Virus record (IMG/VR): IMGVR_UViG_3300030107_003962
Coordinates: 1 to 61,102 of that record
DNA from: a virus
Taxonomy: Duplodnaviria; Caudoviricetes
Length of the DNA: 61,102 nt
Strand: one strand, 5' to 3'
A program made the translations under genes and the position numbers. The notes beneath the pieces are model-generated. The model saw only the letters and a list, made by a program, of their open reading frames with translations. It did not search any database and was not told where the DNA came from. Shown here piece after piece: positions 28,654 to 50,215 of this stretch (positions within the stretch are counted from its first letter, which is position 1; the number at the start of each line of letters is the position of its first letter).

Positions 28654-28666
28654 TTGATTCTCCTTA

Positions 28667-32012: not shown

Positions 32013-32013
32013 C

Positions 32014-32283: not shown

Positions 32284-32290
32284 TTTCTCC

Positions 32291-32392
32291 TTATTTAGCT
32301 AGTTGTAATATTTGTGAAATAAGCACAAAGAATCCAATGTGCTTTGTTATAATCCAATATGCCTTAAATCTCTCTCTAGTATGAAAGTTCAT
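32291..32392 (-). CDS. 33-aa hydrophobic peptide (not in track)
   Basis: MNFHTRERFKAYWIITKHIGFFVLISQILQLAK, ATGA coupling. Confidence 0.5.
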   Translation of the reverse strand: MNFHTRERFKAYWIITKHIGFFVLISQILQLAK

Positions 32393-32604
32393 TTGATACC
32401 TCTCTGCTTTTTAAACAAATCTTTCATTCTTTGAGCCTTAGATTTATTTCTATCTAGGTTGTAGCTTTTTGTTATTATTTGGCTATCATCTCTTTGTAAT
32501 TCTTTATGGAATTGTAGTCCATTTGAAGAGGATATATTCATCTTCTTAGGATACTTTTTAAAAGAGGTTTTATAACCTTTTTCGTTGATTGTATATGTTA
32601 GCAT
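32389..32604 (-). CDS. First early gene, basic hypothetical protein
   Basis: RBS GGAGAACAAATG. Confidence 0.65.
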   Translation of the reverse strand: MLTYTINEKGYKTSFKKYPKKMNISSSNGLQFHKELQRDDSQIITKSYNLDRNKSKAQRMKDLFKKQRGIK

Positions 32605-32944
32605 TTGTTCTCCATTAAGTTAGAGGCACATCAGAGTTACGACCTCTGCATAGTTCAATATTATGTGCCTTAATAAAAATAATTGTCAGTTATTTATGCC
32701 TCTCACCGATTTAAATGTCCTAGCATAGCATAATATCCTTGTTAGTAAACTTGGTAAACACTAGATGGCTCTCGCACTATGATTTTCTCTTAATGTTGTT
32801 TATTCAATTCATTGTATGATAAACAAGTTAATTACTAGTCATAAAATCTAATTACACCATAATCCCTCAATCAGATATTTATTCAGTTCCGGAGTAGATT
32901 AAATTCCTTATTTCAAAAAGCAATGATATCATCAATCTGTAACA

Positions 32945-32990
32945 AATGTATCACTAGTAACTAATACGAGTCAAGGTTTTTTTTAAAATA
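32945..32990 (-). promoter_or_regulatory. Strong early sigma70 promoter
   Basis: A-tract UP element, TTGACT-N18-TACATT with TGn extended -10. Confidence 0.65.
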
Positions 32991-33244
32991 AATGTAACTT
33001 TTGTTACTTTCTCTTCGTGAAATAAATTTAATTGAGGCACTAATAATCATACATTATAGGTATAAATCCAATGTAAATATTGAAATTTGAAATCACATTT
33101 TACTAGATATAGGTAGTTTATAGAAGAGGATTAGGATTTCAATACAATAAGTTATAGAGGGTAATTAGCTATATTTGAGGCATTACTAATTATACTCATT
33201 ATAAGTAATACATAATACATATATATATATAATAGCTAAATATG

Positions 33245-33276
33245 TGCTAGGTTGCTAGGGTGCTAGGGTGCTAGGT
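33245..33276. repeat. Four tandem 8-bp repeats TGCTAGG(T/G)
   Basis: tgctaggt tgctaggg tgctaggg tgctaggt in the ~1-kb gene-free region. Confidence 0.8.
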
Positions 33277-33666
33277 TGTTTTATAGGTGTAATTAGATGT
33301 GCAAGTAATAAGCTAGGATTTACTTATATATAAGGTATTGTATCTATGAATGGATTTATTGCTTATTTGGTGGTGTCTAGGCTCTACAATAGGCATCACT
33401 TTGCAAGACTCATATTATAGGCTCAGATACCTATATTTAATGAAAAAAAACGAAAAAAATCAAAGATAACGAATCCTTGACGACAAAAAACCATTTGCCA
33501 CCCCACCCAACTATACACACCGGTATGCACTATTTTGCTACAATTTTGAAAGTTTGCATAGTTAACGAAAACTTATCGTATATATGGCAGGGTCCCTATC
33601 ACTCTCCCGGCACAGTCTAAGATATAGATATGGAAAAAGAAATAGATATAGGAATAAATAATAAAT

Positions 33667-34410
33667 GTGTATAAATTAAAATCCCGTATGAAGACTTATA
33701 AAGTAAATAAATCAAACTGCTATGTATATAAGGTGAGCGAAGTCCCACCCGGAATTGAGTACAAGGAAGATTGGAGGGATGGATTAATAGGTGATTGGGT
33801 TAAGACAGATGATAACCATGTTATGCAAATACTTAGACGATTTAAAACCGGGAGTAAGGAGTTTATTGGGACTTGTACTGGGACTTATATTGTCTCTCCT
33901 GAGTCTAATCTTGATAGCATACGAAATGGGGATATTTACTCATTAAGCGGGAAAAACTGGTATGAGCGTTTAACTGGACGAAAAGAGCCTACAAAGAATG
34001 AGATATTGTTCGCACAGCGGATATCGCTCGGGAGTAATCCTACTGAAGCATACCTAGCGGTATATAATACGGATAATGAGGATACTGCGAAAAAGAAATC
34101 TGCAATCTTGATTAAGCAGGAAAGGATACAAAAATTAGTGAGACAAGACTTAAAGGATACATTTTCAAAACTTGGAGTAGATTTGGACTACTTAATAGAA
34201 TCAGCGAAAGATGTCGTAGATGGAGCAAAGAACGACTCCGACAGACTGAAAGCTCTAGGGATGCTATGGCAAGCGTTTGGAGTAGTAGAAGAACAAAAGG
34301 TGACTGAAATAAAAGGTGTATTCCAAGGATTCACGCCAAAAGAACTAATGACAGCAGAGAGGGGTCAAATTGAAAGCAAAAAAGAAGCTCTCCCAGAGCA
34401 CGCAGAATAG
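33667..34410 (+). CDS. terS: Terminase small subunit (probable)
   Basis: Directly upstream of TerL; FAQRI..G.NPTEAYLAVY...AKKKSAILIKQERIQ HTH-like segment and SDRLKALGML. Confidence 0.7.
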   Translation: MYKLKSRMKTYKVNKSNCYVYKVSEVPPGIEYKEDWRDGLIGDWVKTDDNHVMQILRRFKTGSKEFIGTCTGTYIVSPESNLDSIRNGDIYSLSGKNWYERLTGRKEPTKNEILFAQRISLGSNPTEAYLAVYNTDNEDTAKKKSAILIKQERIQKLVRQDLKDTFSKLGVDLDYLIESAKDVVDGAKNDSDRLKALGMLWQAFGVVEEQKVTEIKGVFQGFTPKELMTAERGQIESKKEALPEHAE

Positions 34411-34421
34411 CACACCATTCT

Positions 34422-36038
34422 ATGGATTCACTAGACCAACAGGATATTGGTATGGAACAAAAGTTCAATGTGAATATCAACACCCAAAACATAAGCGAAG
34501 CAGAGGAAGGATTAGAATTAGCACGAAATGACCTCATAGCTTTTGGTAAGTTGTTTTTGCCAGATGACTATATGCGCTCCGAGACACCATTTTTTCACTA
34601 CGAAATAGCAGATACCATGGAAGAAAGAGGTGAAGATGGTATCTATAAACACCGCAACCTAGCCATAATAATGCCCCGTGGACACGGGAAAACAGTATTA
34701 ACCAAGTGTGATATCATTCATGGATTTTGCTTTGCAGATGGGCCACTTTTTTATGGATGGGTTTCAGCTACACAAAAATTAGCGACGGGAAATATGGATT
34801 ATGTAAAATATCATTTGGAATATAATGATAAAATTAAGTATTATTTCGGAAACCAAAAGGGTTTAAAATGGACAGAATCAGATATAGAGCTAAAAAATGG
34901 ATGTAAACTCATATCTAAATCGAATATCTCAGGCATTCGAGGTGGGGCTAAGCTACACAAAAGATATGACCTCATCGTGCTGGACGATTTTGAAGACGAA
35001 AATAATACCATTACTCCAGAGGCTCGTTCCAAGAATTCTAATATGGTTACCGCAGTTGTGCATCCTGCTTTGGAGCCTGCTGATGGCCGTCTTAGGATTA
35101 ACGGCACTCCTGTGCACTTTGACTCTTTTATCAACAACCTCATTATTAATTCAACTAGAGCGGAAGCTGACGGGTTGGATTTTACGTGGAAAGTAATACT
35201 CTATAAGGCTCTCCAGTCTGATGGAACTGCACTATGGAATAGTTGGTTCCCAAAAGAAAAATTAGAAGAAAAAAAGAAATTTTACGAGGATTCCGGGCAA
35301 CCTGCAAAATATTGGCAGGAGTATCACATGGAAGTGCAGTCTGCGGAAGATGCTATCTTTACTCAGTCTCACCTTAGATATTGGAATGGTAAATATAGAT
35401 GGGAACCAAATGCAGAGGTTAGCGTATTGAATATTGACGGGAAAGATATTCCTGTTAATGTGTATTGCGGAGTAGACCCAGCCACAGATTCGGAAAGAAG
35501 AGAATCTGACTTTAGTGTCCTTATGTACATAGCCATAGATGCTGATAATAATATATATGTTCTTGACTATATACGGAAAAGGAGTCTTCCGGTTTTAGGG
35601 ATACCCGGAGAAAGCAAGAAAGGTATAGTTGATTTAATATTTGAGTATAATCAACTATACCACCCCAAACTCCATGTAATAGAGGAAACCACAATGTCAA
35701 GACCTATTTTTCAAGCTCTCATAGCTGAGATGAGGAGGAGAAACGATTTTTCAGTACAATTTAGAGAAGAGAAACCCGGAACCAGAATGTCTAAAAGAGA
35801 TAGAATACAAGAGGTTTTAGGACAAAGAATTATAATAGGTAGTGTACATATTAAAAAAGAAATGTTCGATTTACAGCACGAAATTTTGACCTTTGGTCCA
35901 AGGATGGGTCACGATGATACAATTGACGCATTAGCGTATGCTGTAAAGTATGTAACACTTCCATCTGATAATGTGGCCGAAAATGGAAAATTCAGAAAAA
36001 AAACATATTCCAAACCAAAGTCTTGGATAATAGCTTAA
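34422..36038 (+). CDS. terL: Terminase large subunit
   Basis: Walker A MPRGHGKT, Walker B IVLDDFED, RNase H-fold GVDPA...SDFS and HDDTIDALAYA. Confidence 0.95.
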   Translation: MDSLDQQDIGMEQKFNVNINTQNISEAEEGLELARNDLIAFGKLFLPDDYMRSETPFFHYEIADTMEERGEDGIYKHRNLAIIMPRGHGKTVLTKCDIIHGFCFADGPLFYGWVSATQKLATGNMDYVKYHLEYNDKIKYYFGNQKGLKWTESDIELKNGCKLISKSNISGIRGGAKLHKRYDLIVLDDFEDENNTITPEARSKNSNMVTAVVHPALEPADGRLRINGTPVHFDSFINNLIINSTRAEADGLDFTWKVILYKALQSDGTALWNSWFPKEKLEEKKKFYEDSGQPAKYWQEYHMEVQSAEDAIFTQSHLRYWNGKYRWEPNAEVSVLNIDGKDIPVNVYCGVDPATDSERRESDFSVLMYIAIDADNNIYVLDYIRKRSLPVLGIPGESKKGIVDLIFEYNQLYHPKLHVIEETTMSRPIFQALIAEMRRRNDFSVQFREEKPGTRMSKRDRIQEVLGQRIIIGSVHIKKEMFDLQHEILTFGPRMGHDDTIDALAYAVKYVTLPSDNVAENGKFRKKTYSKPKSWIIA

Positions 36039-36073
36039 TTTTTTCTAAATTATAGGCTAATATAGAAGAAAAT

Positions 36074-38344
36074 ATGTCTAAAAAGAAAGAAAGAGCTCAA
36101 ATTATTCACGAATTATTCCTAAAACTGAACGGACAGACTCGTCAGGCTTGGGAAAATGTAAATCAACAAGGTCATGACTTTTACCTTGATAATCAACTAT
36201 CATATACAGAAAAAAAGGCCTTAGAGGACCAAGGGCAACCTACATTTACAATTAATAGGATTATTCCTATAGTTGAAATGTTAACTTTCTATGCAACGGC
36301 AAATGACCCTAGATGGCAAGCAGTTGCAGCGGAAGGCTCGGATTCTCAGGTTGCACACATACATAATGATATAGCTGATTACATATGGTACATAAGCAAT
36401 GGAAAGTCAATGATGCATCAAGTTATTCAAGATGCTTGTACTAAATCTTTAGGTTATATGCAAGTATATGTTGACCCCAATTCAGACCAAGGGATGGGCG
36501 ATGTTAAGATTCGCTCCTTAGAACCTTTTGATGTTTATGTAGACCCTCAATCAAGAGACCCTTTATTTAGAGATGCGGCATTTATGATGGTTCACAAAGT
36601 TCTACCTAGAGCTCAAATGGTAAATGAGTTTCCTGAATTTAAAAATAAAATAAAAAAAGCAAATTCTCAATATCCTTCTCATTATACGCATTCTCAAAAA
36701 GCGGAAGAAAGAGATTTCCAATATAAAGATATAAATGAAAATTTTAATATTTTAGGTGAGGATGAAACTCTGATAGACTATTACGAATTGTATGAGAAAA
36801 TATCAGTCCCATACATGAATGTGGTTTATACTATAGAACCTAGTGAGGAAGAAATAGCTCAAATAGAGCAACAGGCTATAGCTCAAGCTCAAGAACAACA
36901 ATCTGAGGGTGGTGTTAGATTGCAAGAAGAAATGCTTAAATTAGAACAGGCATTAGAGCAAGGTCAAATAATACAAGCTAGATTTGAAAAATCAGCAAAA
37001 GAGCTAGAAGAGCAATTTGGAGCAAAGTTCGAGCAGATTAAAGGGCAGATAATGAATGAGATGGTATCTCAAGCCACTAGAACTGAGCAAAAAGTTGTCT
37101 CTGAAAAAGAATTTAAATTATTTATAAAAAGCGGATTTGGTCAAAATATTGTAAGTCAAGTTAAATACTTTGAATATAAAATTAGACATTCCATAGTGTG
37201 TGGAGATGAAATATTAAGAGAATCTATCCTCCCCGGGAATCAATATCCAATAGTTCCATTTGTATATAAATTTACAGGAACTCCATATCCTATGAGTGCT
37301 GTTGCGCCATTAGTAGGAAAACAAAAAGAATTAAATAAAGCTCATCAATTGATGGTTCATAACGCATCATTAGGCTCCTCCTTACGCTGGATGTATGTTG
37401 ACGGGAGTGTGGATGTAGATTATTGGGAAAAATATGCATCTGCTCCCGGAGCTTTGTTGCCAGTTAATAATGGATATGAAGCTCCTAAAGAAGTCCTACC
37501 AGCTCAATTATCTGCAGCATTCGTTCAGATGGTTCAAGAAGGTAAGGGTGATATGGAGTATTTAGCAGGTATATATTCATCGCAGCAAGGAGATATGAAA
37601 GCCCAGCATGATACTTATAAAGGATTACTTGCAAATGATGAGTATGGAACTAGGAGAGTTAAGCAATGGGTTGAGCAAACAATCAAAGAATCGCTAACAG
37701 AGATAGGAAGGCTTGTCAAAGATTATGCACAAGCAGTATATAGTGCAAACAGAGTATTTAGATTAATTCAGCCAAGTGCAATTCAAGAGCAAAGACAAGT
37801 AGAAATAAACATACCTATCTATAATGACTTTGGCGAGGCTATTGGTAAATATAATGATTATCAAGCTGCTAATTTTGATGTTAGGGTTATAGCTGGAAAT
37901 AGTCTACCTGTAAATAGATGGGCATATCTAGGCGAATTAAAGGAACTAATGCAACTTGGCGTAGTAGATGATATTGCAGTATTATCTGAGACAGATGTTA
38001 AGAATAAAGATTTAATAGCAAAGAGAAAGTCAGTTTACTCTCAATTACAAGGACAAGTATCAGGCATGGAAGAGGAAATTAAAGATAAAGATGGAACTAT
38101 TGAGACCTTAACTAGACAATTAATACAAGCTGGTATAAAAGATAAGGTTAGACAAGTAGAGCACGATATGAGAAAACAGGTGCTTGACTCTAGCTCCAGA
38201 CTGAAAACAGATGTAGCTGTTAATAAAGCACAATTAGATGCAACTGCTAAAGAAGCTAAGTTAGCCGCTAAAGAACATAAAGTTAATTTAAAATCTTTTG
38301 AAAGTGTGAAGAAAAAGGTTGCAAAGAATAAAGAACAAAAGTAA
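36074..38344 (+). CDS. Portal protein (P22-like)
   Basis: FY..NQ...KAL..QGQPTFTINRIIP; VYVDP.SRDP.F.DA; YPIVPF; QKELNKAHQLMVH; long C-terminal helix; follows TerL. Confidence 0.9.
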   Translation: MSKKKERAQIIHELFLKLNGQTRQAWENVNQQGHDFYLDNQLSYTEKKALEDQGQPTFTINRIIPIVEMLTFYATANDPRWQAVAAEGSDSQVAHIHNDIADYIWYISNGKSMMHQVIQDACTKSLGYMQVYVDPNSDQGMGDVKIRSLEPFDVYVDPQSRDPLFRDAAFMMVHKVLPRAQMVNEFPEFKNKIKKANSQYPSHYTHSQKAEERDFQYKDINENFNILGEDETLIDYYELYEKISVPYMNVVYTIEPSEEEIAQIEQQAIAQAQEQQSEGGVRLQEEMLKLEQALEQGQIIQARFEKSAKELEEQFGAKFEQIKGQIMNEMVSQATRTEQKVVSEKEFKLFIKSGFGQNIVSQVKYFEYKIRHSIVCGDEILRESILPGNQYPIVPFVYKFTGTPYPMSAVAPLVGKQKELNKAHQLMVHNASLGSSLRWMYVDGSVDVDYWEKYASAPGALLPVNNGYEAPKEVLPAQLSAAFVQMVQEGKGDMEYLAGIYSSQQGDMKAQHDTYKGLLANDEYGTRRVKQWVEQTIKESLTEIGRLVKDYAQAVYSANRVFRLIQPSAIQEQRQVEINIPIYNDFGEAIGKYNDYQAANFDVRVIAGNSLPVNRWAYLGELKELMQLGVVDDIAVLSETDVKNKDLIAKRKSVYSQLQGQVSGMEEEIKDKDGTIETLTRQLIQAGIKDKVRQVEHDMRKQVLDSSSRLKTDVAVNKAQLDATAKEAKLAAKEHKVNLKSFESVKKKVAKNKEQK

Positions 38345-38354
38345 CTTAAGTTAC
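38319..38354 (+). promoter_or_regulatory. Late promoter for scaffold/capsid with a perfect 14-bp palindrome
   Basis: TTGCAA-N17-TAACTT; GTAACTTAAGTTAC (38341-38354) overlaps the -10/+1 region. Confidence 0.5.
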
Positions 38355-38370
38355 AAAATAAGGACAAATT

Positions 38371-39276
38371 ATGGCAGAAAATAAAGGTAACTCAGAAAAT
38401 ACGAATCAGGATATGTTAGACCAAGTAGCTGATTCTGTTATGGATGACTCCGACTTTTTTGATAATTTGGAGCAACAGGTAAATGGGATAATAGCAGACC
38501 CCGAGCCAGTTGCGCCACGAGAAGAACAGGTAACTCAGGCCTCAGAAGCAGCTCCAGTTAATGACGCTGTGGAGACTCCAGACTCCAGACAAGAAGTGGA
38601 TTGGGATAGCGAAAGTAATCCTTACAAAAAGAGATATAGTGATTCATCAAGGGAAAACCAAAGAAATCAAGAATATATACAAGACACTAAGAAATATGGT
38701 GCTATTATAGATGTGATGAAAAAGGACCCCGGTTTAGTAGGTCACGTTAAAAACTACCTAGAAGGTAGTGTCCAACCAAATAAAGTTGATGTACCAAAGG
38801 ATTTTGTATTTGACCCAGATGAGGCATTTGCAGACCCCGGCTCTACATCTGCTAAAGTATTTGAGAAGGTAGTAACGAATATCGTTGATGCTAAAGTAAG
38901 GCAAAGCGAAAATAAAGTAGCAACTGCTATGGAAGCTGATGCCAAACAACAACAACAACGAGTAGGTGCTGAAAAATGGATGAAAGAAAATAATGTATCT
39001 CAAGAGGAATTTAATGTGATGATGGAAAAGGCTAATTCACATACTATATCTTATGATGATATTAATTTAATATTAAATAAAGATAAGTTTGCAAAGAATG
39101 TTGCCGATAATCAAAGAAGAGAAGTTGCAAAGCAAGCAGAAAATGCAAGAAATATAGCAACTCCTAATTTGACTCATTCCGCAAGCGCAGATACTACAGC
39201 TATTTCAGAAGATGATAGAATATTCAATTCTTTGATGGGATTTGAAGATAGCGAAAAAGGAATGTTCGACTCGTAG
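38371..39276 (+). CDS. Capsid scaffolding protein
   Basis: Acidic/helical protein between portal and MCP; NPYKKRYSDSSRE motif. Confidence 0.75.
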   Translation: MAENKGNSENTNQDMLDQVADSVMDDSDFFDNLEQQVNGIIADPEPVAPREEQVTQASEAAPVNDAVETPDSRQEVDWDSESNPYKKRYSDSSRENQRNQEYIQDTKKYGAIIDVMKKDPGLVGHVKNYLEGSVQPNKVDVPKDFVFDPDEAFADPGSTSAKVFEKVVTNIVDAKVRQSENKVATAMEADAKQQQQRVGAEKWMKENNVSQEEFNVMMEKANSHTISYDDINLILNKDKFAKNVADNQRREVAKQAENARNIATPNLTHSASADTTAISEDDRIFNSLMGFEDSEKGMFDS

Positions 39277-39298
39277 ACTTCTGCAAGTCTACTGTCGA
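39266..39298 (+). promoter_or_regulatory. Hairpin upstream of MCP (mRNA stabiliser or processing site)
   Basis: TCGAC-tc-GTAGACTT-ctgc-AAGTCTAC-t-GTCGA, no U-tract. Confidence 0.5.
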
Positions 39299-39326
39299 CT
39301 TAATAAAATAAAAGGATGGTAGACAA

Positions 39327-40973
39327 ATGGCAATAAATGATTATGCCGGCAATAGAAATATGGGCAATGCGACAGGTTGGTCAGAAGGACAAGCCTCATC
39401 GTGGGACCCAGCTTCTAGTACGGTAGACACAGGTGAAATGAGAAGAAAGTATAACTTTAGTGAGAAATTCACAGAGTTATCACTTGACCAAACACCTTTT
39501 TTTAGAATTGTTTCTAAAATAGGTAAAAAACCAACAGACGACCCACAATTCAAATATACTGAAAAAAGACAGTCTTGGATGAAGAGATATGGATATGCTG
39601 TAGGTACAGGAACAGCAGATGCAGCAATTCTGCAACTTACATCCGGTACCGCAGGTACATCCGTATCAGACTCTACAGAGTGGCTTTATATGGCAACAGA
39701 CTATAAGAGTGCTGGAAATCTCCAAAACATTATAGGTCAATCAGGCACATCAATTGGTGACGCTGGAACAAGACCTGAGTTTTACTTGCAGGGTCAGTTA
39801 GTTAAAGTTAATGTTACAAGTGCTAATGGTAGTGCAATGACAGACTATAAGTTGTTTCAAGTAATTGCAGCTCCGGTTGCTGGTTATGCTTGTCACACAA
39901 CTGATGCTGCTCTTACAACTGCTGGTGCTTTTATAACTACAGCTGCGTATGACCTTCTTGATGGACCAGCTGCAGCCAAATACTATGAGTGTGTAAAACT
40001 TAATGTTAAGCAAGTTAAGGACTCAAGTAAACAGGCAACTGCATACTTAATGACTTATGATAGTAGTGATGCTTTTATAGATGCTGCTGCTGTTACAGCT
40101 GAGACAGATGGTTCAGCAGGTGTAACTATAGCTGGTACATTAGAACCTAGACGTTCATATGTAGTAGGTACTTCTTACAAAGAAGGTTCAACTCTAATGG
40201 AACAAAACTGGGGCGACCAGCCATACAGCACAGGGTATGGATATACTCAGATATTCAGAAATGAATTCGGTATGTCTAATACTGCAAGAGCAACTGCGCT
40301 AAAGTATGAAAAGAACGAGTGGGCAAGACTATGGAGAGATAAACTTATCGAGCATAAGTGGGAAATTGAGCAAACAGCTCTATTCGGCTCTCAAGGAGTA
40401 GTTACTGGTGTAGGTTCTGATAATGACACACATTATTACACTCAAGGTGCTGTTGATTATGTTCTTAATAATGGTAACTTATTCAACTTAAACCTATCAA
40501 CTAAACTACAAGATGATTTCTTAGAAGACTTGAGTCAGCTTGTAGACCCAAGATACAATAACTCTAAGTCAATGATGTTTTTCTGTGATACAGCAACATA
40601 TAACTGGCTACATAAGTTAGGTGGATTTTTCAATAACAATCTTGAAATGTCAACTAACCATAGTGCTAGTTTCGCTGTTTCAGGTAAGAAGAGGTCATTT
40701 GGAGTTAGCTTCACAACTATCTCAACTGTTTATGGTGACATTAATGTTGCTAGAAACATCGCTTTAGATGGTAGTGGAATTAAAATCTTAGGTGTTAACA
40801 TGAACTATGTTAAATGGCGTCCTCTTGTAGGTAACGGTGTTAACAGAGACACATCAGTTTACGTTGGTGTACAAACTCTTGAAAATACTGGTACAGATAA
40901 GAGAGTAGATATGATACTAACTGAGGGTGGATTCGAGTGGTCAATGCCCGAATGTCACGCTCTATGGAAATAA
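39327..40973 (+). CDS. Major capsid protein (SU10/DUF5309-like HK97 fold)
   Basis: RRKYNF...DQTPFF...KKPTDDPQFKYTE; GYTQIFR...SNTARAT; EHKWEIEQTALFG; DMILTEGGFE..MPECHA. Confidence 0.85.
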   Translation: MAINDYAGNRNMGNATGWSEGQASSWDPASSTVDTGEMRRKYNFSEKFTELSLDQTPFFRIVSKIGKKPTDDPQFKYTEKRQSWMKRYGYAVGTGTADAAILQLTSGTAGTSVSDSTEWLYMATDYKSAGNLQNIIGQSGTSIGDAGTRPEFYLQGQLVKVNVTSANGSAMTDYKLFQVIAAPVAGYACHTTDAALTTAGAFITTAAYDLLDGPAAAKYYECVKLNVKQVKDSSKQATAYLMTYDSSDAFIDAAAVTAETDGSAGVTIAGTLEPRRSYVVGTSYKEGSTLMEQNWGDQPYSTGYGYTQIFRNEFGMSNTARATALKYEKNEWARLWRDKLIEHKWEIEQTALFGSQGVVTGVGSDNDTHYYTQGAVDYVLNNGNLFNLNLSTKLQDDFLEDLSQLVDPRYNNSKSMMFFCDTATYNWLHKLGGFFNNNLEMSTNHSASFAVSGKKRSFGVSFTTISTVYGDINVARNIALDGSGIKILGVNMNYVKWRPLVGNGVNRDTSVYVGVQTLENTGTDKRVDMILTEGGFEWSMPECHALWK

Positions 40974-40984
40974 GGGGGTTATAA

Positions 40985-41335
40985 ATGGCTAGTAGAAGTA
41001 GAAGTGATAAGTATTTTCTGGCTAATAATCCTAATGGTCAAGTAACAGACGCTCAAGTTGTAGCTTTAAAATCTTTATCAAACACAGAGTTGGATGATTT
41101 AGATGATATGGTTGCTGAGTTAAAGACCTTGACTACGGCTTTACCCGTAACTCAGACATTGGAAGATGTAACCGCAACTTATAGTTCAGGTTCAGCTCCG
41201 GCTGCAACAGGTGCTATAACAATTACAGATGGTGCATCTCCAACAAATGCAGAGCTTTTAGATTATTGTGAAGAACTTCGTTCTTTACTTGCAAGTGTAA
41301 TTGCAAATCTAAAAACAGGTGGAGTGCTTAGTTAG
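40985..41335 (+). CDS. Putative head decoration/head fibre protein
   Basis: Follows MCP; C-terminal LASVIANLKTGGVLS typical of trimeric head fibres. Confidence 0.55.
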   Translation: MASRSRSDKYFLANNPNGQVTDAQVVALKSLSNTELDDLDDMVAELKTLTTALPVTQTLEDVTATYSSGSAPAATGAITITDGASPTNAELLDYCEELRSLLASVIANLKTGGVLS

Positions 41336-41348
41336 TACAATACAATAG

Positions 41349-41398
41349 GTGTAGCGGTCTGGACTCTTTCGTTTGATTCTCCTCCGGGCCGCTTACAC
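41349..41398 (+). ncRNA. Candidate anti-Shine-Dalgarno stem-loop sRNA
   Basis: 15-bp stem with two G-U pairs (plus-strand specific) and a 19-nt loop CTCTTTCGTTTGATTCTCC complementary to early-gene RBSs. Confidence 0.55.
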
Positions 41399-41444
41399 TA
41401 CAATTCATTCACGGTAAACATAAACCTTAGAAGGGAAGAAAATT

Positions 41445-41954
41445 ATGGCAACAAACTTAAAACGATATTCAGTACAAGAGGCTTTAAATACAGCCCTCAA
41501 TGACGATGGAAATGCATTAAAAGTAGACCTCGATAATGCAAACATTACAGCTGGAAATATAGCAGTAGACCTAGACCATGCTAATGACGATGTCTTAGTA
41601 TATGGTTATGATGGCTCATCTAATCAAAAAATAAGTGTAAATTCAGACGGGGAAGTAATTACAACCCCCGGAACAGCCTCTGCAGTAGTAAAGACAGATG
41701 ACGGGCAAATAAAAGCATCAGGTGGAACTGTTTGGTCTTTGCAAATAGATATGGCTGGGGTTACAATAGGTGATAAAATTGAAATAAAGAATAGTACAGA
41801 TAACTCTGGTACAGCTTTATTGACATTTACATCAACAGCAGCAAATCAATCATTTACATTTACACCATCAATGGGAATAGCCTTTAGTACAGGTATATAT
41901 TCTGATGAAACAAAATCAGGTGGAACTATAACAGTTACTGCAGTTTACAGTTAA
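41445..41954 (+). CDS. Virion structural protein
   Basis: T/S/G/D-rich, beta-rich C-terminal domain; position in the head module. Confidence 0.6.
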   Translation: MATNLKRYSVQEALNTALNDDGNALKVDLDNANITAGNIAVDLDHANDDVLVYGYDGSSNQKISVNSDGEVITTPGTASAVVKTDDGQIKASGGTVWSLQIDMAGVTIGDKIEIKNSTDNSGTALLTFTSTAANQSFTFTPSMGIAFSTGIYSDETKSGGTITVTAVYS

Positions 41955-41966
41955 GGAGTCTAATAT

Positions 41967-44276
41967 ATGAGCTTTAAAACACAAGTTGAAGCCCTTGTTA
42001 CGGTTCCTGCAACATTTACAGAAGATATGCTGGGTGATTCCTTATCAAATGGGGCTAAAGATGTAATACAAAAAATAATGGTATCTAGGCCTGAAGATAT
42101 TTGGTTGTTTACTAAGTCTTCAGCAGTAGAGCCTTCAGGATTAACTGTAAATAGTGGCTTTGTATATGATGTATCAAGGGGGGCAAAATCTTGCACTCCA
42201 ATCCCCGGACCAATGAGACACAAAGCGGCAGATAGTAGTAGTTTAGCTTATGCTACATCAGAATTCCCTGTATATTATCACTTAGATAGTAAATTATTTA
42301 TATTACCAGAACCGGGAGCTGGTTCATCAAAAACAATATCAACATTCGCAACAGATTCAAACGGAACATTAATTACTACAAGTACAGACCATGGTTTTAA
42401 TGAGTCTGACAATATAATAATAGCAAATAGTGGAGATGAGACATATTACATAGGTGCGCATTATATACATTCAGTTCCATCATCTACGACATTCGTTATA
42501 ACATTAGCGTATAGTGCTGGTGCTGGGCAGACTGATTATACAGTATCAGAACCTACAGCATTATGCCAACATTTATCTTTACCAACTGTAACTCAAAGTG
42601 CTAGTTCAATAGCAAATTTTCCGGCAATTTACTACACTCCAGTAGTGTTGTATGGAGCTATGGATGTGGTCTTGCATTCTATGGCTAAAATCCATACCGA
42701 GTCTCCTACGTTAGACATACCTGCAGGACCCGTAGCTCCTATATTAAAAGAAATTACAACAACATTGCCGACATATACGGAACCTGAGCCTTTTATTATG
42801 CCAGTTCCACCTACTAGTGTAGGAGTAGATTTTGGGGGATTATCAGATTTACCAACTTATGAGTTAATAGATGTACCTGTTGCTCCGGCATTAGTTCTAC
42901 CAGTAAGTCAAATATCAATGACATCTTTAGAAACTGTAGATTTACCCGTTCCTCCACCAGCTCCTGAAATTGATAGTGGCGAGGCGAACTTTACTCAACC
43001 TAGATTAGATGCTCCAGTATATATAAAACCAGTATTTACACCACCTACATTCCCAATATTAGATGAAATTGTATTGCCATCAGCTCCAGTAGTGCCAGAG
43101 TTAGAATTCAATGAGGATGGGCAAACAAATCAAGCTGGCTCTAATTTAGCAGATTATTTACCACCAGTTTTAAATGCTCCAGAATGGACTAGTGTTGATG
43201 TGGCTATTATAGATGAAGACCCTGAGATGGTATCTTCAAAGTTGCAAAAAATACAAAGTCAAGTTTCTGTATTTCAATCTGAATTGCAATCTCAATTAAA
43301 TATTTATCAAAGAGATTTTGCAATATATGAAAATAAAATGAAAGAGGCTATGCAGAATTCTCAGGCGGGTGTATCTATTGAGAATAACAATAATCAAAGT
43401 CTATTAGCTAAATATGGACAAGAGCTTCAAAAGTATCAAGCTGAAAGTACTACAATATTACAGAAATGGGATAAGGATAATATCCAAAAGAAATATACAG
43501 AGTGGAACACGAAATATTCTAATTTGCTACAAGAATATCAGCAAAACATAGCAGTATCCCTAAATGAGTTTCAGGCAGAATCTGCAATATATAATGCAGA
43601 AATACAGAAAGCAATGCAAGATGCTACCAATAAGATGAATTCTTCTAATTCAGAATTTTCAGCAAAGCTAAATAAGTATAGCGGTGAGGTACAGGCATAT
43701 CAAGCTAAGACAGCGCATCAAGTGACAGAATGGAATGCATCTGTAGCTCAAGTAGCTATGACTGAATTTACTCAAAAAAGAGCAGATGCTATGACTGAAT
43801 GGAATACATCTTTAACATCAACTTATTCTTTATATGGACAAAGAGTTGCTGAGAGAAATAATAAATTTCAAGCAGAATTAAGTAAGTATTCAGCAGATAT
43901 AAATAAAAGAATGCAGGAGTATCAAGCTGAGACTGGACTCGATATGTCTATATATACAAATCAAATGAATCTTGCAACAGCTAAATTTCAAGCAGATATG
44001 AATCAGCAAGATACTTTATTTAAAAATCAAATACAAAAGTTCGTAACTGAATCTCAAGACGTTAGGTCAGAGAATCAAGAAATAATGAGTAAGTATACTG
44101 CTGCAGCCCAGCAATGGCAAGGGGAGGCTGGAGTATTAACAAATGAATATAATGCTAAATTACAAGATTTAGGGCAACAATATAATTGGTATGTTGCCAA
44201 ATTAGAGAGTTTAAGAGCTAAATATAATGAATCATTTATGTTGAGCCCTCAAGCACAACAACAACAAAAACAATAA
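41967..44276 (+). CDS. Head-tail adaptor-like protein with Pro-rich linker and long Gln-rich coiled coil
   Basis: N-terminal FPVYYHLDSKLFILPEP...FP..YYTPVVLYGA adaptor-like segment; repeated LxKYxxExQxYQA. Confidence 0.55.
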   Translation: MSFKTQVEALVTVPATFTEDMLGDSLSNGAKDVIQKIMVSRPEDIWLFTKSSAVEPSGLTVNSGFVYDVSRGAKSCTPIPGPMRHKAADSSSLAYATSEFPVYYHLDSKLFILPEPGAGSSKTISTFATDSNGTLITTSTDHGFNESDNIIIANSGDETYYIGAHYIHSVPSSTTFVITLAYSAGAGQTDYTVSEPTALCQHLSLPTVTQSASSIANFPAIYYTPVVLYGAMDVVLHSMAKIHTESPTLDIPAGPVAPILKEITTTLPTYTEPEPFIMPVPPTSVGVDFGGLSDLPTYELIDVPVAPALVLPVSQISMTSLETVDLPVPPPAPEIDSGEANFTQPRLDAPVYIKPVFTPPTFPILDEIVLPSAPVVPELEFNEDGQTNQAGSNLADYLPPVLNAPEWTSVDVAIIDEDPEMVSSKLQKIQSQVSVFQSELQSQLNIYQRDFAIYENKMKEAMQNSQAGVSIENNNNQSLLAKYGQELQKYQAESTTILQKWDKDNIQKKYTEWNTKYSNLLQEYQQNIAVSLNEFQAESAIYNAEIQKAMQDATNKMNSSNSEFSAKLNKYSGEVQAYQAKTAHQVTEWNASVAQVAMTEFTQKRADAMTEWNTSLTSTYSLYGQRVAERNNKFQAELSKYSADINKRMQEYQAETGLDMSIYTNQMNLATAKFQADMNQQDTLFKNQIQKFVTESQDVRSENQEIMSKYTAAAQQWQGEAGVLTNEYNAKLQDLGQQYNWYVAKLESLRAKYNESFMLSPQAQQQQKQ

Positions 44277-44285
44277 GGGGAAGAA

Positions 44286-44780
44286 ATGGCAGATAGATTA
44301 GACTGGAAAGTAAGTGTAACGCCTGTTAAACAAACTGCCGCTGGAACAGATGGTGGTGGAGTTCAAGCAGAAGTTATAGCTTATGACTTTAAAAAATCAC
44401 TAGGAGGAGGCAATTCATCAGGAACATGGGCAGGTAATAATACATCTGCATGGGCTGATGATGGCGGCACTCCACAACACACTTTATTACAAAGTAGGAC
44501 TTCAAACAATACAATAACAGTATCGTCAGGAGATGATGCTTTATGGATTAAGCATACAGGATTTAAGTATGATGCGTCTGTAACAACAGGGGCAAATGTA
44601 AACAAAGGTTCTGTTGCAGAAGATACAACTGTTGTCATAATAACTGCTGCCTCACAAGAGGTTTGTAGGTTGAAATCAGGAGAAGGTGTATTATTACCAA
44701 GTCCTAAAAATGCAACATGGACATTAACAGATGATGCAGGTGGTGAAGCGGTAGCTGTTGAATATGCAGTATTCACATAA
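44286..44780 (+). CDS. Virion structural protein
   Basis: LWIKHTGFKY...LKSGEGVLLP...VAVEYA; late module. Confidence 0.6.
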   Translation: MADRLDWKVSVTPVKQTAAGTDGGGVQAEVIAYDFKKSLGGGNSSGTWAGNNTSAWADDGGTPQHTLLQSRTSNNTITVSSGDDALWIKHTGFKYDASVTTGANVNKGSVAEDTTVVIITAASQEVCRLKSGEGVLLPSPKNATWTLTDDAGGEAVAVEYAVFT

Positions 44781-44789
44781 GGAGCTAAT

Positions 44790-45053
44790 ATGAAAGTAAA
44801 AGAACTAATGGAATTAGTAGGGGAGAATAAATTTAATTATGTTAAAAATCTAATAGAAGATGGGTTAGCTGAGATACAATTAGAAACTAATGAGAATATC
44901 ACTCAATATATATCTAATTTAGTGGGAGACCAAGCAGCATACAATCTCCCATCTAATTTAGTGCAAGTTAAATCTGTTAAAATTTTAGATTCAAATTCTT
45001 CTTATTACTGTCCTATACCTAGAGTAGATATACCAGATTACAAGGAGAAATAA
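44790..45053 (+). CDS. Adaptor-like protein (N-terminal half type)
   Basis: MKVKELME...LIEDGLAEI...GDQAAYNLPSNLVQVKSVKI. Confidence 0.55.
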   Translation: MKVKELMELVGENKFNYVKNLIEDGLAEIQLETNENITQYISNLVGDQAAYNLPSNLVQVKSVKILDSNSSYYCPIPRVDIPDYKEK

Positions 45054-45451
45054 TGGCATACGGAACCGATGTAGGAAGAAAAATATCTGATAAGTATGCG
45101 TATTTTATAAGGGGAAGGCAGTTAATTATAATTGAATATCCTACAGCATTGGAAGTTCCAATTGGCGATGAACCTCCTTATGTTGCTCCCACTACAACTA
45201 TCAATAGTGGATTATTATTAGAATATACTGCGATTCCTGATACCTCTGGCATTGTAAATGAATCAAGTGAAGTTCCATTGAACGATACGCTTGCTCTTGC
45301 ATTAGTGGATTATATAAGGGCAACTTTGATAGATTCTCCAGAATTAATACAGCAACGAGAATATTACATGACAAGATTTAGAAATAGAATAGCGAAATAT
45401 GTTACTGCTAGAGTAGGTGGAGTAAGAAGAGTAGTTACGAGGAAATTTTAA
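45053..45451 (+). CDS. Adaptor-like protein (C-terminal half type)
   Basis: [10 protein letters not shown]...[10 protein letters not shown]...[11 protein letters not shown]...YYMTRF. Confidence 0.55.
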
Positions 45452-48378
45452 TGACCATATGGACTAATAGAAGTAGTGATTCTACTACATCTTGGACTTT
45501 AGATTCTGAAACATCTTCAACGAGTTGGAATTTAAAAGACGGTTCATCTACTATATTTGGTACGAGTAATTTCCCAGCTACTATATCTGGTGTGTTTGAT
45601 TCAGCGGCATCAGCAGCAACATCAGTATTGGGTGGTCCATATTCTCTTCTCGACGATAAAAGTTTCGTACTAGGAACCGATTCAGATTTTTACTTTAAAT
45701 ATGATACTACTAGAGATGGTTTTATTCTAGGGAGTAGCTCTAATACTAGTAGTAAATTCTTCACAATAGGCAGTCCATCCGGAGATATATTTACAATTGC
45801 ACATAATGGGAAGGTAACAATTGATGGTGATTTAGATGTTAATGGGACATCAACTACAGTATATGACATAGAAATAGAAGACAAAACTATAAGATTAGCT
45901 GGGGATGAAACTAATAATTCAAATGTGAATGGTGGGGGATTATATTTAGGCAGTTCAGGATTAAATCATTTTATGACATATGTAAGTTCTGGTGATTATT
46001 GGAATTTTAGTACTAATATAAATATCCCAGATGATGGGAAAATATTAAGCGGTGGTTCTCAAATAATAGAGTACGATAATGGTGCTTTTGCAAATGATAT
46101 GTGGTTATTATTTGGAACAGGCTCAGAGCACATGAAACTTTCTTCAAAGGGAAACAAGAACTTAATTCTGTCTACTAATAAAGGCGAAAATGAGACAACT
46201 CCTTTTGGTAGCTCAGGGTATATAGAAATACAAAGTGACATTAATGGAGATATACAAATAACTCCTCACGGAACTGGCAATTTAATATTGGGCAATTCCA
46301 CAGGTGGCGGGATACACTTTACATCAGATATTGTTTACGACCAAAATGGACAGCAAATATTTAGAATAGAAGGCGTTAGTTCCGCTGTAAATACATTAAA
46401 GATGAAATCATCAATTGCAGATAGCGGTCCTGAATTATTTCCAGAGGGCTCAGATACTAATATAGATTTAAACATAAAGTCAAAAGGAACTGGCGATATA
46501 ATATCAGCAGCAGATAAACATTATATTAAGGGTGATAGTGGCGATTACTTTGTTAATATAGACCCAGACAACAATCAATTTTGGCTTACAGACAATCAAA
46601 GTGATGTAGCTTATAACATATTTTCTGACAATAATGATGGGGTTATATTTTCTGTGGGTAAAGACACTTATCCAACTATAAGATTGTACGACAAGGATGA
46701 TGCGGGGAAAGAATATAAGCATTATATACTCGCTGGGAAAAGCTGGTTAAGTAGTCACAATGGGTTTGATTTTAAACTAGGGACTGCTGGCAATTTCGCA
46801 ATAGATATGAGTGATGGGGGTTTATTTACATTATATAGTGGCAATACAGCAAATAAATTTGAAATAAACACAGACGCCAATGGAGTTACAAAGATAGTTA
46901 CAAATGATGGTAATCCTACAGATAGCGACCATGTTGCACACCTTACCGTAGAACCAGATGGAGATTTTATAGTTAATGTAGATGAGGATTGTGAATTTAT
47001 TATACAAGAAGACGGCGGCACATATACACCTACAGCTGATAATCACGCAGCTACAAAGAAATATGTAGATGACCAGCAAAATACAGGACCAACGGGGCCT
47101 ACGGGACCAACAGGACCAGCAGGAACCCCCGGAACAGACGGAACAGATGGCAGCGATGGTGTTGATGGAACTCCGGGTACTCCGGGTTCTGATGGCTCAG
47201 ATGGAAGTCCGGGACCTACAGGGCCTTCAGGGACCGATGGAAGTGACGGAAGTGATGGTAGTCCGGGGCCAACTGGACCAACGGGTCCAACAGGGCCTAC
47301 TGGACCAAGTGGTAGCGATGGTACACCCGGTTCTGATGGTAGCGATGGAGGACCGGGGCCTACTGGACCTACTGGACCAAGCGGTAATGATGGAGCAGAC
47401 GGTAGTGATGGAGCTACAGGGCCAACAGGACCTACGGGGCCAACAGGGCCAAGTGGAGTAGCTGGGGCATTAGATGATTTGTCTGATGTAACATTTTCTA
47501 GTGGCGATTTAACTATTACGGATTTAGATACAATGTTATTCACAACAACTACTGGAACTATCCAACATGATACTGGCCCATATTTCTTTATGAGGTCAGA
47601 CCACGATAATCCATATTGGTATTGGTCAGAGGGTGGAACTAGTATATTAAGTGACCAAAGAGCATCTATAAATGTTACCGCTACAACTAGTTCATTTTCT
47701 TTATATAATCCTGCAAATATTTCACAGTATTTTGATATAGCAACCGGAGCAAGTGGAGATACAACGCTTAGAACATTTTCAGGTGATATGACTCTTAACT
47801 CAAAGACAGGCAATATAACAGTACAAGACGACGGGGGTGCATACACCCCAAGTTCAGATTATCATATAGCTACTAAAAAGTATGTAGATGATGAAATTGC
47901 TGGAGTAGACCCATTTCATATCGCTATTCCACAAAATGCATTTAAACCATCTGTGAATAATAGTTGGTATCCCCCAAATTATAATCAGAATATGGGAAGC
48001 ACGATAACAGCTGCTGATTTTCAAGACCAAACTTTAACATATGCTCATATTTTCCAAACATCAGTAGATACAACTTTAGTAGGTCTTATGTTAAATTTTT
48101 ATGCTAGTTCAAGTGTTTCCTACGAAATTGCATTATACGATGTGACTCTTCCATCTGATGGCGCTACAGTTGCATCAACTGTAACTCAGATTGGTTCTGA
48201 TATTCAATTAAATGGAGGGAGTGCTTTAACATCTTATAGATATTATAGGATAAAACAAACACTTGGCGCATACTCATTAGCAGCTGACCACGGAGTTTAT
48301 TTAATTGGTAGATATACGAGTGGTAGTGGCAAAAAATCACTTTATTTTAGTGGAACATTGGAAGGGTCAAATGGATAA
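45451..48378 (+). CDS. Collagen-repeat fibre protein
   Basis: G-X-Y run at about 47086-47461 flanked by duplicated (Q)xDGGxYTP..xH.ATKKYVDD motifs. Confidence 0.8.
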
Positions 48379-48487
48379 GATACCAGTAATAGAAGAAGAA
48401 AAAGGAATTCATTATACTGAAGAAAGTATAGAATTGTTAATTGAAAAAATAAACGAAATAATAGACTGGATTAACAGTCAATCATAA
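48371..48487 (+). CDS. 38-aa protein
   Basis: [12 protein letters not shown]...[16 protein letters not shown]. Confidence 0.6.
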
Positions 48488-48497
48488 GGAGGCCATT

Positions 48498-49682
48498 ATG
48501 GCAATTTATAACTCAGGAAATATGACACCAGAAGAGCTGAAAATGCTTGATGGCGTTATAGAAGAAAACCCACACTATAAAAAAAGAGAAGATAGAAGGG
48601 CAAAGCGTAAAGCTAAGAAAATAGAAAGAAAAGCTGCTAAAGCAAAAGCGAAAGTTGAAAGAAAAAATAAGAAGACGAAGATTAAAACTTTAAAGAAAGG
48701 CTTAAAGAAGGCTAGAAAGAGTGATTCGGAAGATAAAAGAACTAATATTAAAGATATTAAAGACGAAATGAAGTATACAAAGAATCCTGACAAATTCACT
48801 AAAAAAACTGTGAGAAAAAATAGAAAGACTTGGAAAAAAGCAGATAAAGCATATGATAGAACAATAAAAAAGGAACTAAAAGGTTATTCAACTTCAGATG
48901 AATTAGAGAGAAAGGCTAAAAGAAAGCAATGGATAGCGGATAATAATCCAATTAGAAAAGTATCTGAAGCTGTTAGAGATATTGTTAGACCAAATTGGGA
49001 TGAAGATATAGCATATGGTAGGAGTGGTTTAGATGGAAAAAGGACTAGATATAAACCAGAATATAGGGGAAGTAGCGATAGGGATGATGCTAGATTAGGT
49101 AGAATATATAGGGAGGCAGATGAATCATTTGAATTTTCTGCTCCTAAATACGACCCAAATACAGGTAAGAAATTAGACAAATACGAAATAGAAAGTATGA
49201 GGGAAAAAGCGTTTTTTGAAAACAGAGAAAACTTCAGAAAAAGAAAATATTCAGGAGCTAAAGGGAAAGTGAGAAAGTTTATGGAGGATGTATATGATGA
49301 ATATACTCCTGAAATTCACGAAAACCGACATATGCGTTCTTTTAGTAGAGATATGAGAGGCTACACAAGCGATACATATGGAGAAAATTTCGAAAATTTT
49401 AAAAAGAATCGTGATAAAAAATATAGAAATATACGTAAAGAAAAAGCAGAAGATGCAAAGAGTCGTATATTTGAGGACAAACCTTTATCTTTAAGACAGC
49501 AGCAAGTAATATATGAAAGAGATAAAGCAATATATGACAAGAACCCCAATAAAACGTGGGATGGCAAAACAGAGAGTTATGATGAGTATTTAAATAGACG
49601 TGGAGATGATACTCCATATAATAGAGGAAATGAATACTGGAAGAGAAAGAAGAAAAGAGTAAGCCGATATAGGAATAAATAA
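48498..49682 (+). CDS. Extremely Lys/Arg-rich 394-aa protein
   Basis: RBS AAGGAGG; KKREDRRAKRKAKKIERKAAKAKAK... Confidence 0.75.
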   Translation: MAIYNSGNMTPEELKMLDGVIEENPHYKKREDRRAKRKAKKIERKAAKAKAKVERKNKKTKIKTLKKGLKKARKSDSEDKRTNIKDIKDEMKYTKNPDKFTKKTVRKNRKTWKKADKAYDRTIKKELKGYSTSDELERKAKRKQWIADNNPIRKVSEAVRDIVRPNWDEDIAYGRSGLDGKRTRYKPEYRGSSDRDDARLGRIYREADESFEFSAPKYDPNTGKKLDKYEIESMREKAFFENRENFRKRKYSGAKGKVRKFMEDVYDEYTPEIHENRHMRSFSRDMRGYTSDTYGENFENFKKNRDKKYRNIRKEKAEDAKSRIFEDKPLSLRQQQVIYERDKAIYDKNPNKTWDGKTESYDEYLNRRGDDTPYNRGNEYWKRKKKRVSRYRNK

Positions 49683-49700
49683 AAAACAAAGGAGAGTACA

Positions 49701-49808
49701 TTGAAATATATTAAAGATAAATTAAGTTCATTATGGTCTATGCTTAGTTGGAAAGTAATGATGGTTTTGCTAGTAGTAGGTCTAGCAGCAATATGGATGC
49801 TAAGATGA
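49701..49808 (+). CDS. 35-aa single-TM peptide (holin/antiholin-like; not in track)
   Basis: RBS AAGGAGAG plus TTG start: MKYIKDKLSSLWSMLSWKVMMVLLVVGLAAIWMLR. Confidence 0.6.
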   Translation: MKYIKDKLSSLWSMLSWKVMMVLLVVGLAAIWMLR

Positions 49809-50215
49809 TGCAAGATTTAATCAATAGCGTAAAGGAAAATGAAGGCTATAGAAAAATGGTCTATAAAGATTCTTTAGGTATTGATACCATAGGTTATGGT
49901 TTCGCAATTAAAGACCTTGAGTTGGATGAAGATATTTGTGAGGAGATATTAAAGAGAAAGTTAGATAGGTTAGTTGACAGAGTAACCAAAAAATGGGGAT
50001 GGGTTATTAACTTACCAATTGAAGCGCAAGAGGTAATATATGAAATGTGCTATCAAATGGGAATCTCGGGAGTATCAAAGTTCAAAAAGACATTACTCTT
50101 TTTTGAAAGTCACGAATTCAAAATGGCAGCAAAAGAAATGTTGGACTCTAAGTGGGCTAAATCGGATAGCCCACAAAGAGCTAAAAGAATGAGTGATATA
50201 ATAAAGGAGTTATAA
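49805..50215 (+). CDS. Endolysin, GH24 (T4-lysozyme-like)
   Basis: NEGYRKMVYKDSLGIDTIGYG (E-x8-D-x5-T) and EMCYQMG..GVSKFKK...AAKEMLDSKWA; likely start ATG 49805/49808. Confidence 0.9.
   Translation: MMQDLINSVKENEGYRKMVYKDSLGIDTIGYGFAIKDLELDEDICEEILKRKLDRLVDRVTKKWGWVINLPIEAQEVIYEMCYQMGISGVSKFKKTLLFFESHEFKMAAKEMLDSKWAKSDSPQRAKRMSDIIKEL

Follow-up and report, generated by a model that had tools for sequence, protein, structure and literature searches.

A conserved hairpin downstream of the capsid gene of uncultured marine phages presents an anti-Shine-Dalgarno loop that has, in one lineage, predicted targets among early genes

In Staphylococcus aureus, the hairpins of RNAIII, as well as RsaE, present C/U-rich loops that pair with the Shine-Dalgarno (SD) sequences of several mRNAs and thereby block initiation. 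The c4 antisense RNAs of phages P1 and P7 and the CI RNA of P4 are stem-loops cut from a longer transcript, and their loops pair over the ribosome-binding site (RBS) to shut off translation. Known shut-off of phage early genes at the level of translation is carried out by proteins, for example T4 RegB and RegA. Hairpins following a phage capsid gene are likewise familiar, T7 T-phi being an example of a terminator or stabiliser in this position.

The hairpin described here was found in an uncultured marine phage whose record, a complete virus of 61,102 bases, was analysed as one whole stretch, hereafter the window. Like RNAIII and RsaE, it offers a C/U-rich hairpin loop to SD regions, one RNA having many (here predicted) targets; however, RNAIII and RsaE are transcribed from the host genome as units of their own, from promoter to terminator, and use short UCCC-type seeds, whereas the phage element sits within a late polycistronic mRNA, has no U-tail, carries a 16-19-nt loop with up to 17 nt of complementarity, and is only predicted to be active. 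With c4 and CI it shares the design of a phage-encoded stem-loop whose loop is antisense to RBS-overlapping sequence, although the targets of c4 and CI belong to the same operon and serve immunity control, while the candidate targets here are many early genes on the opposite strand. The T4 endoribonuclease RegB (and the repressor RegA) similarly inactivate early phage mRNAs via the SD, but these effectors are proteins and the effector proposed here is an RNA. Finally, post-capsid terminators such as T7 T-phi resemble it as stable G+C-rich hairpins directly after the major capsid gene; in contrast to that type, the window element is without a U-tract (a U-rich tail occurs in 9 of 46 distinct sequences from the main clade of its relatives), and its loop is large and sequence-constrained. 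Our literature search turned up no account of a hairpin that follows a phage capsid gene and exposes the 16S rRNA tail or an anti-SD sequence in its loop.

The hairpin occupies a 109-nt gap between two plus-strand coding regions (41335 and 41445) of the head-gene module, arranged as follows:

34422-36038, plus strand: terminase large subunit gene
36074-38344, plus strand: portal gene
between the portal and major capsid protein genes, plus strand: 301-aa ORF
39327-40973, plus strand: major capsid protein gene, 548 aa (phrog_1328, E 3.7e-12), the gene whose relatives were collected
40985-41335, plus strand: small ORF of 116 aa, 3' of the capsid gene and 5' of the hairpin; its C-terminal part matches phrog_31660 'tail fiber protein' (E 2.9e-12)
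41348-41399, plus strand: RNA hairpin of 16 bp (6 bp, a bulged U, 10 bp) with a 19-nt loop; minimum free energy -25.3 kcal/mol
41348-41353 with 41394-41399, plus strand: outer stem P1, the bulged U being 41393
41354-41363 with 41383-41392, plus strand: inner stem P2
41364-41382, plus strand: pyrimidine-rich 19-nt loop, CUCUUUCGUUUGAUUCUCC, antisense to the SD, spacer, AUG and second codon of early genes
41400-41444, plus strand: leader of the next gene, with UUCAUUCACGG, a small second hairpin and the purine-rich SD AGAAGGGAAG; nearly identical in seven relatives
41445-41954, plus strand: gene 3' of the hairpin, 169 aa, without family; its start region scores -8.2 kcal/mol against the loop

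More late genes follow on the plus strand beyond 41954. The minus strand between 18721 and 32604 encodes replication, recombination and takeover functions, among them a Sak-type annealase, RusA, a nuclease, a sigma-70 region 4 protein, an ArdC-like protein and a 2OG-Fe(II) oxygenase; we take these minus-strand genes to be early, as their orientation and functions suggest. Searches of cultured phage records with DNA and with the capsid protein returned no match to the region or to that protein, and single-protein searches of viral contigs with the 169-aa and 116-aa neighbours returned no relatives. The 116-aa ORF has a conserved N-terminus and a variable C-terminus, the C-terminal part being unalignable even among close relatives. 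There are no tRNA genes in the window, and a scan of 32000-50000 showed no enrichment of sigma-70-like sites or terminators.

The sequence-only reading of this locus had described two arms (41349-41398) that pair around a 19-nt loop, G-U pairs that fit plus-strand RNA only, and the lack of a U-tract expected of a normal terminator. Each of these points is borne out. The arms pair as proposed, with a minimum-free-energy structure wider by one G-U pair (41348-41399), and folding yields -25.3 kcal/mol for the plus-strand RNA (z -4.95; 0 of 200 shuffles equally stable), as against -15.6 kcal/mol for the minus strand (z -1.60; 11 of 200). The minus-strand fold is weaker because three wobbles, U41358-G41388, U41360-G41386 and the outer G41348-U41399, turn into A-C mismatches. 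Among all plus-strand 60-nt windows of the record the hairpin ranks third in stability, and the two more stable ones both lie in G+C-rich repeat sequence. An intrinsic (Rho-independent) terminator is ruled against by the size of the loop, by a 3' tail (UACACUACAAUUC) that contains no U-tract, and by a terminator scan of 32000-50000 in which the hairpin is not among the terminators listed. Nor does a repeated promoter-like motif follow the hairpin, the sequence there having 3 matches at up to 3 mismatches where 2.07 are expected.

The loop 18-mer, taken as bases 41366-41383, is identical in 17 of 18 positions to the plus-strand sequence at 28647-28664, as had been noticed from the letters alone. 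The loop 18-mer has 3 matches at up to 3 mismatches against 0.06 expected (0 of 100 shuffles reach 3). A 15-mer within it recurs exactly at 19588, 24697 and 28650, and at up to 2 mismatches has 7 matches, all on the plus strand, where 0.52 are expected (0 of 100 shuffles reach 7). Read on the minus strand, the three exact sites are the SD, spacer and ATG of three early genes, and the sequence statements of the first reading are therefore all confirmed: the exact RBS-plus-start copies at 19588-19602 and 24697-24711 are in place, and the 11-nt match at 21061-21071 is contained in the start-region string of rusA, which begins at 21056. As to gene identities, RusA is confirmed (phrog_140), and the annealase at 24254-24700 is a Sak-type single-strand annealing protein (PF06378, E 1.3e-41). 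The predicted duplexes of main interest are these:

28645-28674, minus strand: start region of the early gene 28207-28653 (148 aa, no family); -24.2 kcal/mol, 17 contiguous pairs including one G-U; best predicted target
24692-24721, minus strand: start region of the Sak-type single-strand annealing protein gene 24254-24700; -21.3 kcal/mol, exact 15-mer
19583-19612, minus strand: start region of the early gene 19385-19591 (68 aa); -20.0 kcal/mol, exact 15-mer
21048-21077, minus strand: start region of the RusA-like resolvase gene starting at 21056 (phrog_140); -16.6 kcal/mol, 11-nt match

We then compared the loop with start regions throughout the window, placing the start of each ORF (minimum 45 codons) at the first start codon preceded by an SD core at a distance of 4-16 nt, irrespective of spacer. 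The mean duplex energy was -11.65 kcal/mol for 34 minus-strand starts versus -8.54 kcal/mol for 33 plus-strand starts (Mann-Whitney p 0.0026), a difference that is significant only with these SD-anchored starts and not with crude calls at the first ATG (28 versus 24 genes, p 0.22). In 300 composition-preserving shuffles, no loop matched the window loop in its mean on early starts, in its gap between early and late starts or in its best duplex (-24.2 kcal/mol). Duplexes at or below -14 kcal/mol were predicted for 9 of 34 early starts versus 0 of 33 late starts, in line with the proposal that early RBSs resemble the target sequence and late ones differ; the start region of the capsid gene itself scored -7.4 kcal/mol. 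The window loop, in the manner of antisense and anti-SD regulatory RNAs, thus contains an accessible seed complementary to predicted target starts beyond chance, and the comparison with shuffled controls that had been suggested for it comes out in its favour. A 17-bp duplex within a closed 19-nt loop is topologically strained, and only a seed of ~7-10 bp could form unless the stem opens.

Relatives of the capsid gene allowed us to ask how far the hairpin extends beyond this genome. We collected 77 loci from viral contigs and 80 loci from metagenome contigs, and most of them have a gap of ~85-120 nt directly 3' of the capsid gene that is occupied by a long hairpin. A covariance model, R1, built from 32 distinct main-clade sequences, finds exactly one plus-strand match, directly 3' of the capsid gene, in 48 of 78 sources and in 54 of 81 sources. 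Of 158 loci, 122 include the capsid C-terminus and 113 also at least 110 nt downstream; the motif is present in 97 of these 113, and each of two complete genomes has a single copy. The phages concerned are uncultured, marine and ~60 kb in size.

Several lines of evidence identify this element as an RNA. Fifteen of its 16 stem pairs show double-sided covariation, with 129 double-sided cells as compared with 50.9 in shuffles (0 of 500 as high), and the paired fraction drops from 77% to 55% or less in slid controls. G-U accounts for 83 of 596 pairs and the plus strand is the more stable one in 26 of 33 sequences, and the element is therefore a plus-strand RNA. It has no counterpart in Rfam 15, which gave 0 matches at E <=1 across the window's locus (L078, window 39800-42960) and 7 related loci (65,872 bases). 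A catalogue of ~8,500 candidate structured RNAs from IMG/VR leaves the Shine-Dalgarno sequence unmentioned in its main text, and its supplementary tables might list the motif (PMC10690425). The window hairpin is real and more than a product of chance, and we take it to be the local form of this undescribed, conserved RNA element of marine phages.

Variation in its loop is slight. All 46 distinct sequences contain CCUCCUU in the loop; CCUCCUUUC occurs in 43 of them and CCUCCUUUCU in 39, and this core is kept while capsids diverge to ~50% identity and the stems change. The 16S rRNA 3' end of B. subtilis is given as GAUCACCUCCUUUCU (PMC5427494), and the main-clade core CCUCCUUUCU is the same sequence as this B. 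subtilis-type end; five of 33 distinct loops read UCACCUCCUUUCU, which reproduces 13 nt of it. The window loop shares CUCCUCC with the 16S tail and diverges outside that core; moreover, the tail is a free 3' end, whereas the element lies in the loop of an mRNA hairpin. The resemblance raises the alternative that the loop is a mimic which titrates a binder of the 16S tail, for example a toxin that cuts ribosomes, a maturation RNase, or a protein that is ribosomal or serves hibernation. The frequency of CCUCCUUUCU and the 13-nt copies speak for such mimicry, which we nonetheless find decidedly improbable: no candidate partner was identified, and the window's own clade has drifted from the 16S sequence (UUUGAUUCUCC, GGUUCUCUGGUUCC) yet is still SD-complementary, which favours pairing over mimicry. 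A 7-10-nt anti-SD core that had nothing to do with either SD pairing or the 16S tail would, given its retention over capsid divergence while the stems change, be very unlikely.

A search within the individual loci for a common cis or long-range target of the main-clade loop gave best sites that were scattered and mostly in coding sequence. At one locus (L033), the loop (UUUCGCCUCCUUUCGA, L033:72-98) has 13 contiguous complementary nucleotides at the start region of a same-strand gene for a GH108 endolysin (L033:5590-5606; -24.3 kcal/mol). A lysis-gene target as a general rule was rejected, as four scorable homologous genes (L026, L027, L044) reach only about -4 kcal/mol. In the main-clade alignment (A2), the symmetric internal loop between the stems is often GA on both strands (..GGCGAGGGG.. 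with ..CCCCGACCC..), which is reminiscent of tandem sheared G-A pairs or of a kink-turn-like element. One 47-kb contig with a main-clade capsid gene and hairpin (L176; 78.6 bits) was binned in a metagenome-assembled genome labelled 'uncultured Dehalococcoidia'; this would be a weak host hint at most, since the contig may be a mis-binned phage.

The window itself lies outside the range of the R1 model. The 16 loci without an R1 match are exactly those with capsids closest to the window's (58-93% identity), and R1 run on the whole window gives no match at E <=10 and, with filters off over 251 nt, 8.3 bits and E 0.32. All 12 distinct hairpin sequences of these 16 loci nevertheless reach -23.9 kcal/mol or lower in a 60-64-nt window between the capsid gene and the next module, usually 3' of a small ORF with a variable C-terminus (two loci, L006 and L007, have no ORF of the 116-aa type between capsid gene and hairpin). 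Compared with the position of R1 matches, the window hairpin is on the same strand and in the same intergenic slot before the next module, but the 116-aa ORF intervenes. The two-tier stem and the 19-nt pyrimidine loop are common to both architectures, whereas the window loop reads UUCUCC(UCC) and not CCUCCUU, and one bulged U replaces the symmetric internal loop. Because R1 does not recognise the window hairpin, its homology to the main-clade element is positional and architectural only, and it is not a proven member.

Closer to the window, two loci with capsids of 91% (L156) and 93% (L165) identity have the same hairpin, its stem altered without loss of pairing (U-A in place of U-G, U-G in place of C-G, and an extra G-C). 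The L156 loop, UUCUUUCAUUUGAUUCUCC, matches window 28647-28664 in 18 of 18 positions, and that of L165 is CUCUUU-AUUUGAUUCUCC. The intergenic blocks of the three are 88-96% identical and thus too close to prove constraint on the window-type loop; the flanking coding sequences (41050-41330 and 41470-41954) are unalignable, which places the hairpin at a mosaic module boundary. More can be learned from a sister group of four loci (L002, L161, L100, L101), in which covariation is seen at 6 of 14 pairs, the paired fraction of cells is 98.2% (0 of 500 shuffles) and every loop reads GUUCUCU-GUUCC. Other subclade loops read GUAUGUUCUC, AUUGGUUCUC, CGGUCCUUAGUUCCUC or GCCUCCUUG. In the subclade, loops are of differing UUCUC or UUCC types and are conserved, while stems covary. 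Short loops with no anti-SD motif occur at 3 of the 16 loci, in two distinct hairpin sequences (L006; L007, identical to L102). The post-capsid stem covariation that had been put forward as a check is therefore seen in the main clade and in the sister group alike. Loop conservation, a second such check, is seen in the constrained anti-SD-like loops of relatives, with the exceptions of L006 and L007, whose short loops are of another kind.

These exceptions bear on the explanation that the hairpin punctuates the mRNA after its most expressed late gene, by stabilising the 3' end, by providing a processing site or by factor-dependent attenuation that sets how much capsid is made relative to downstream proteins, with a loop that binds a protein (S1, Rho or a phage protein) and an early-gene match that is secondary. 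Strong hairpins with short non-anti-SD loops suggest that the stem alone may have a function; additionally, the position directly after the capsid gene is constant, the window hairpin ranks among the top three plus-strand structures of the record in stability, and the intergenic block is a conserved island between swapped flanking genes. A degenerate site for a protein or for Rho, however, leaves the 7-10-nt invariant, 16S-tail-identical loop core unexplained, as it does the 17/18 antisense match of the window. The missing U-tract and the scarcity of U-rich tails in the main clade likewise show that the hairpin is not an intrinsic terminator. We regard punctuation as the main role of the hairpin as unlikely, albeit the likeliest of the alternatives.

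Mosaic flanks could also be read as support for a loop that is a scar with no present function, either the remnant of an inverted early-type gene start or a recombination by-product at the module boundary. On the minus strand, the loop does resemble an RBS followed by a decayed start codon (window, ACG; L156, ATG; L165, ATA). No minus-strand ORF starts from this RBS-like reverse complement, though, and the start codon is not conserved; furthermore, the G-U pairs indicate selection on plus-strand RNA, and the retention of anti-SD-type loops in covarying hairpins over capsid divergence to ~50% identity would be unexpected of neutral DNA. A scar is hardly to be expected on these grounds.

Downstream of the subclade hairpin, the leader of the next gene is near-invariant in eight loci (L156, L165, L161, L002, L100, L101, L096 and the window) despite differences in the first hairpin and in the genes on either side. 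It combines UUCACGG with a second hairpin, which is small and covaries, and with the SD AGGAAGGAAG; it may be a regulatory RNA in its own right; scanning viral contigs for the leader pattern gave the contig of L002 as the sole match. Could the loop pair with this SD on its own mRNA, forming a loop-to-leader pseudoknot that uncouples the next gene from capsid ribosome traffic? The geometry would allow it: the hairpin ends 10-45 nt upstream of the next start codon in all clades, and the purine-rich subclade SD (AGGAAGGAAG or AGAAGGGAAG), read by sequence, can form ~6 bp with parts of the loop. Yet the downstream start of the window, at -8.2 kcal/mol, belongs to the lower part of the 67 start regions, as compared with -15 to -24 kcal/mol for nine early ones, and the subclade leader is near-constant although the loops differ. 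Five main-clade loci (L029, L035, L040, L045, L048), again as read from their sequences, keep the loop with no SD before the next gene. The poor downstream pairing in the window and these SD-less members argue against a purely cis role, which we consider improbable.

As pairing is favoured over mimicry and these points stand against a cis role, an anti-SD RNA that acts on other mRNAs is the reading we favour. Trans repression of early genes by the hairpin loop is, on the sequence evidence, the best single reading, which we hold tentatively and at somewhat less than an even chance. Under this proposal, the late head-gene transcript would carry a structured RNA presenting a 19-nt pyrimidine-rich loop, the window hairpin being the lineage's version of the post-capsid hairpin (here after the capsid gene and one small ORF). 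The loop would base-pair with the SD regions of mRNAs and keep 30S subunits off, and the pairing might additionally create a double-stranded RNase site. With the onset of late transcription the hairpin would become abundant and would then act in trans to repress the phage's early and recombination genes on the minus strand. Structure, strand, conservation, loop constraint, complementarity and early-start bias are observed; accumulation of the RNA (within the mRNA or as a stable fragment), pairing in the cell and repression are inferred.

If loops of this kind are aimed at a phage's own early genes, they should follow those genes from genome to genome, and here the picture is mixed. G001, the genome of L002, behaves like the window (early versus late p 0.0015; 5 of 300 shuffles), while in G002, G003, G004 and G005 the signal between loop and early starts does not rise above that of shuffled loops. 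In a 6x6 table of loops by genomes, the own-genome diagonal is favoured for early starts (reached by 30 of 720 permutations for means, 45 for 10th percentiles and 56 for minima) and not for late means (313 of 720), a cross-genome signal that rests on the window and G001, two of the six genomes, and that suggests weak co-variation of loop and target. The main-clade loop is a generic 16S-tail-like anti-SD sequence irrespective of the RBSs of the phage that carries it, and the family-level target therefore cannot be 'own early genes'. The expectation of the sequence-only reading that the loop tracks early RBSs in relatives thus holds for the window and G001, and does not hold for the other four genomes or for the main clade. 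Its larger proposal, an RNA-based early-to-late shut-off, retains the plus-strand structure, the beyond-chance antisense loop, the discrimination between early and late starts and the conserved hairpin, against which stands the tracking of RBSs in two of six genomes. Taken with the generic main-clade loop, this limited tracking means that an early-to-late switch may be a specialisation of the window's lineage.

A more general variant, which we think unlikely, is that a family-wide copy of the anti-SD tail in the most abundant late mRNA would serve as a general competitor for SD sites and so reprogramme translation late in infection; in the window's lineage it would have been re-aimed at the phage's own early starts, as an RNA-only early-to-late translational switch. 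Were trans repression true, an RNA within the capsid message that does a job like that of RegB or RegA would be a new and cheap solution. Whatever the mechanism, a motif outside Rfam with strong covariation and a 16S-tail-identical loop, found in about a hundred marine phage contigs, offers a tangible way to study how translation is controlled in ocean viruses that are abundant but uncultured.

Expression of the region was looked for in sequencing runs, three of RNA and one of unknown kind. Contigs from RNA runs that are identical to the window comprise pieces within 39234-41153, covering parts of the capsid gene and the small ORF but in no case the hairpin; they are uninformative on ends, strand and level, and weigh neither way on expression of the hairpin. 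In run X2, one contig of ~96% identity spans the hairpin.

Other features of the window and its relatives also deserve mention. A giant protein of 2,139 aa is encoded at 12305-18724 and has no match in Pfam; G001, G003, G004 and G005 likewise encode giant proteins, one or two per phage, with a length of ~3,000 aa in these relatives. G+C-rich repeats of the Gly-X-Y (collagen-like) type lie at 682-741, 47176-47469, 59896-59955 and 60649-60792, and their presence near both record ends suggests one gene cut by the linear representation. Lastly, a gap in the minus-strand early region beside the sigma-region-4 gene (22582-22868) contains two very stable hairpins (-27.5 and -23.8 kcal/mol in 60-nt windows), which could be terminators or a small RNA.
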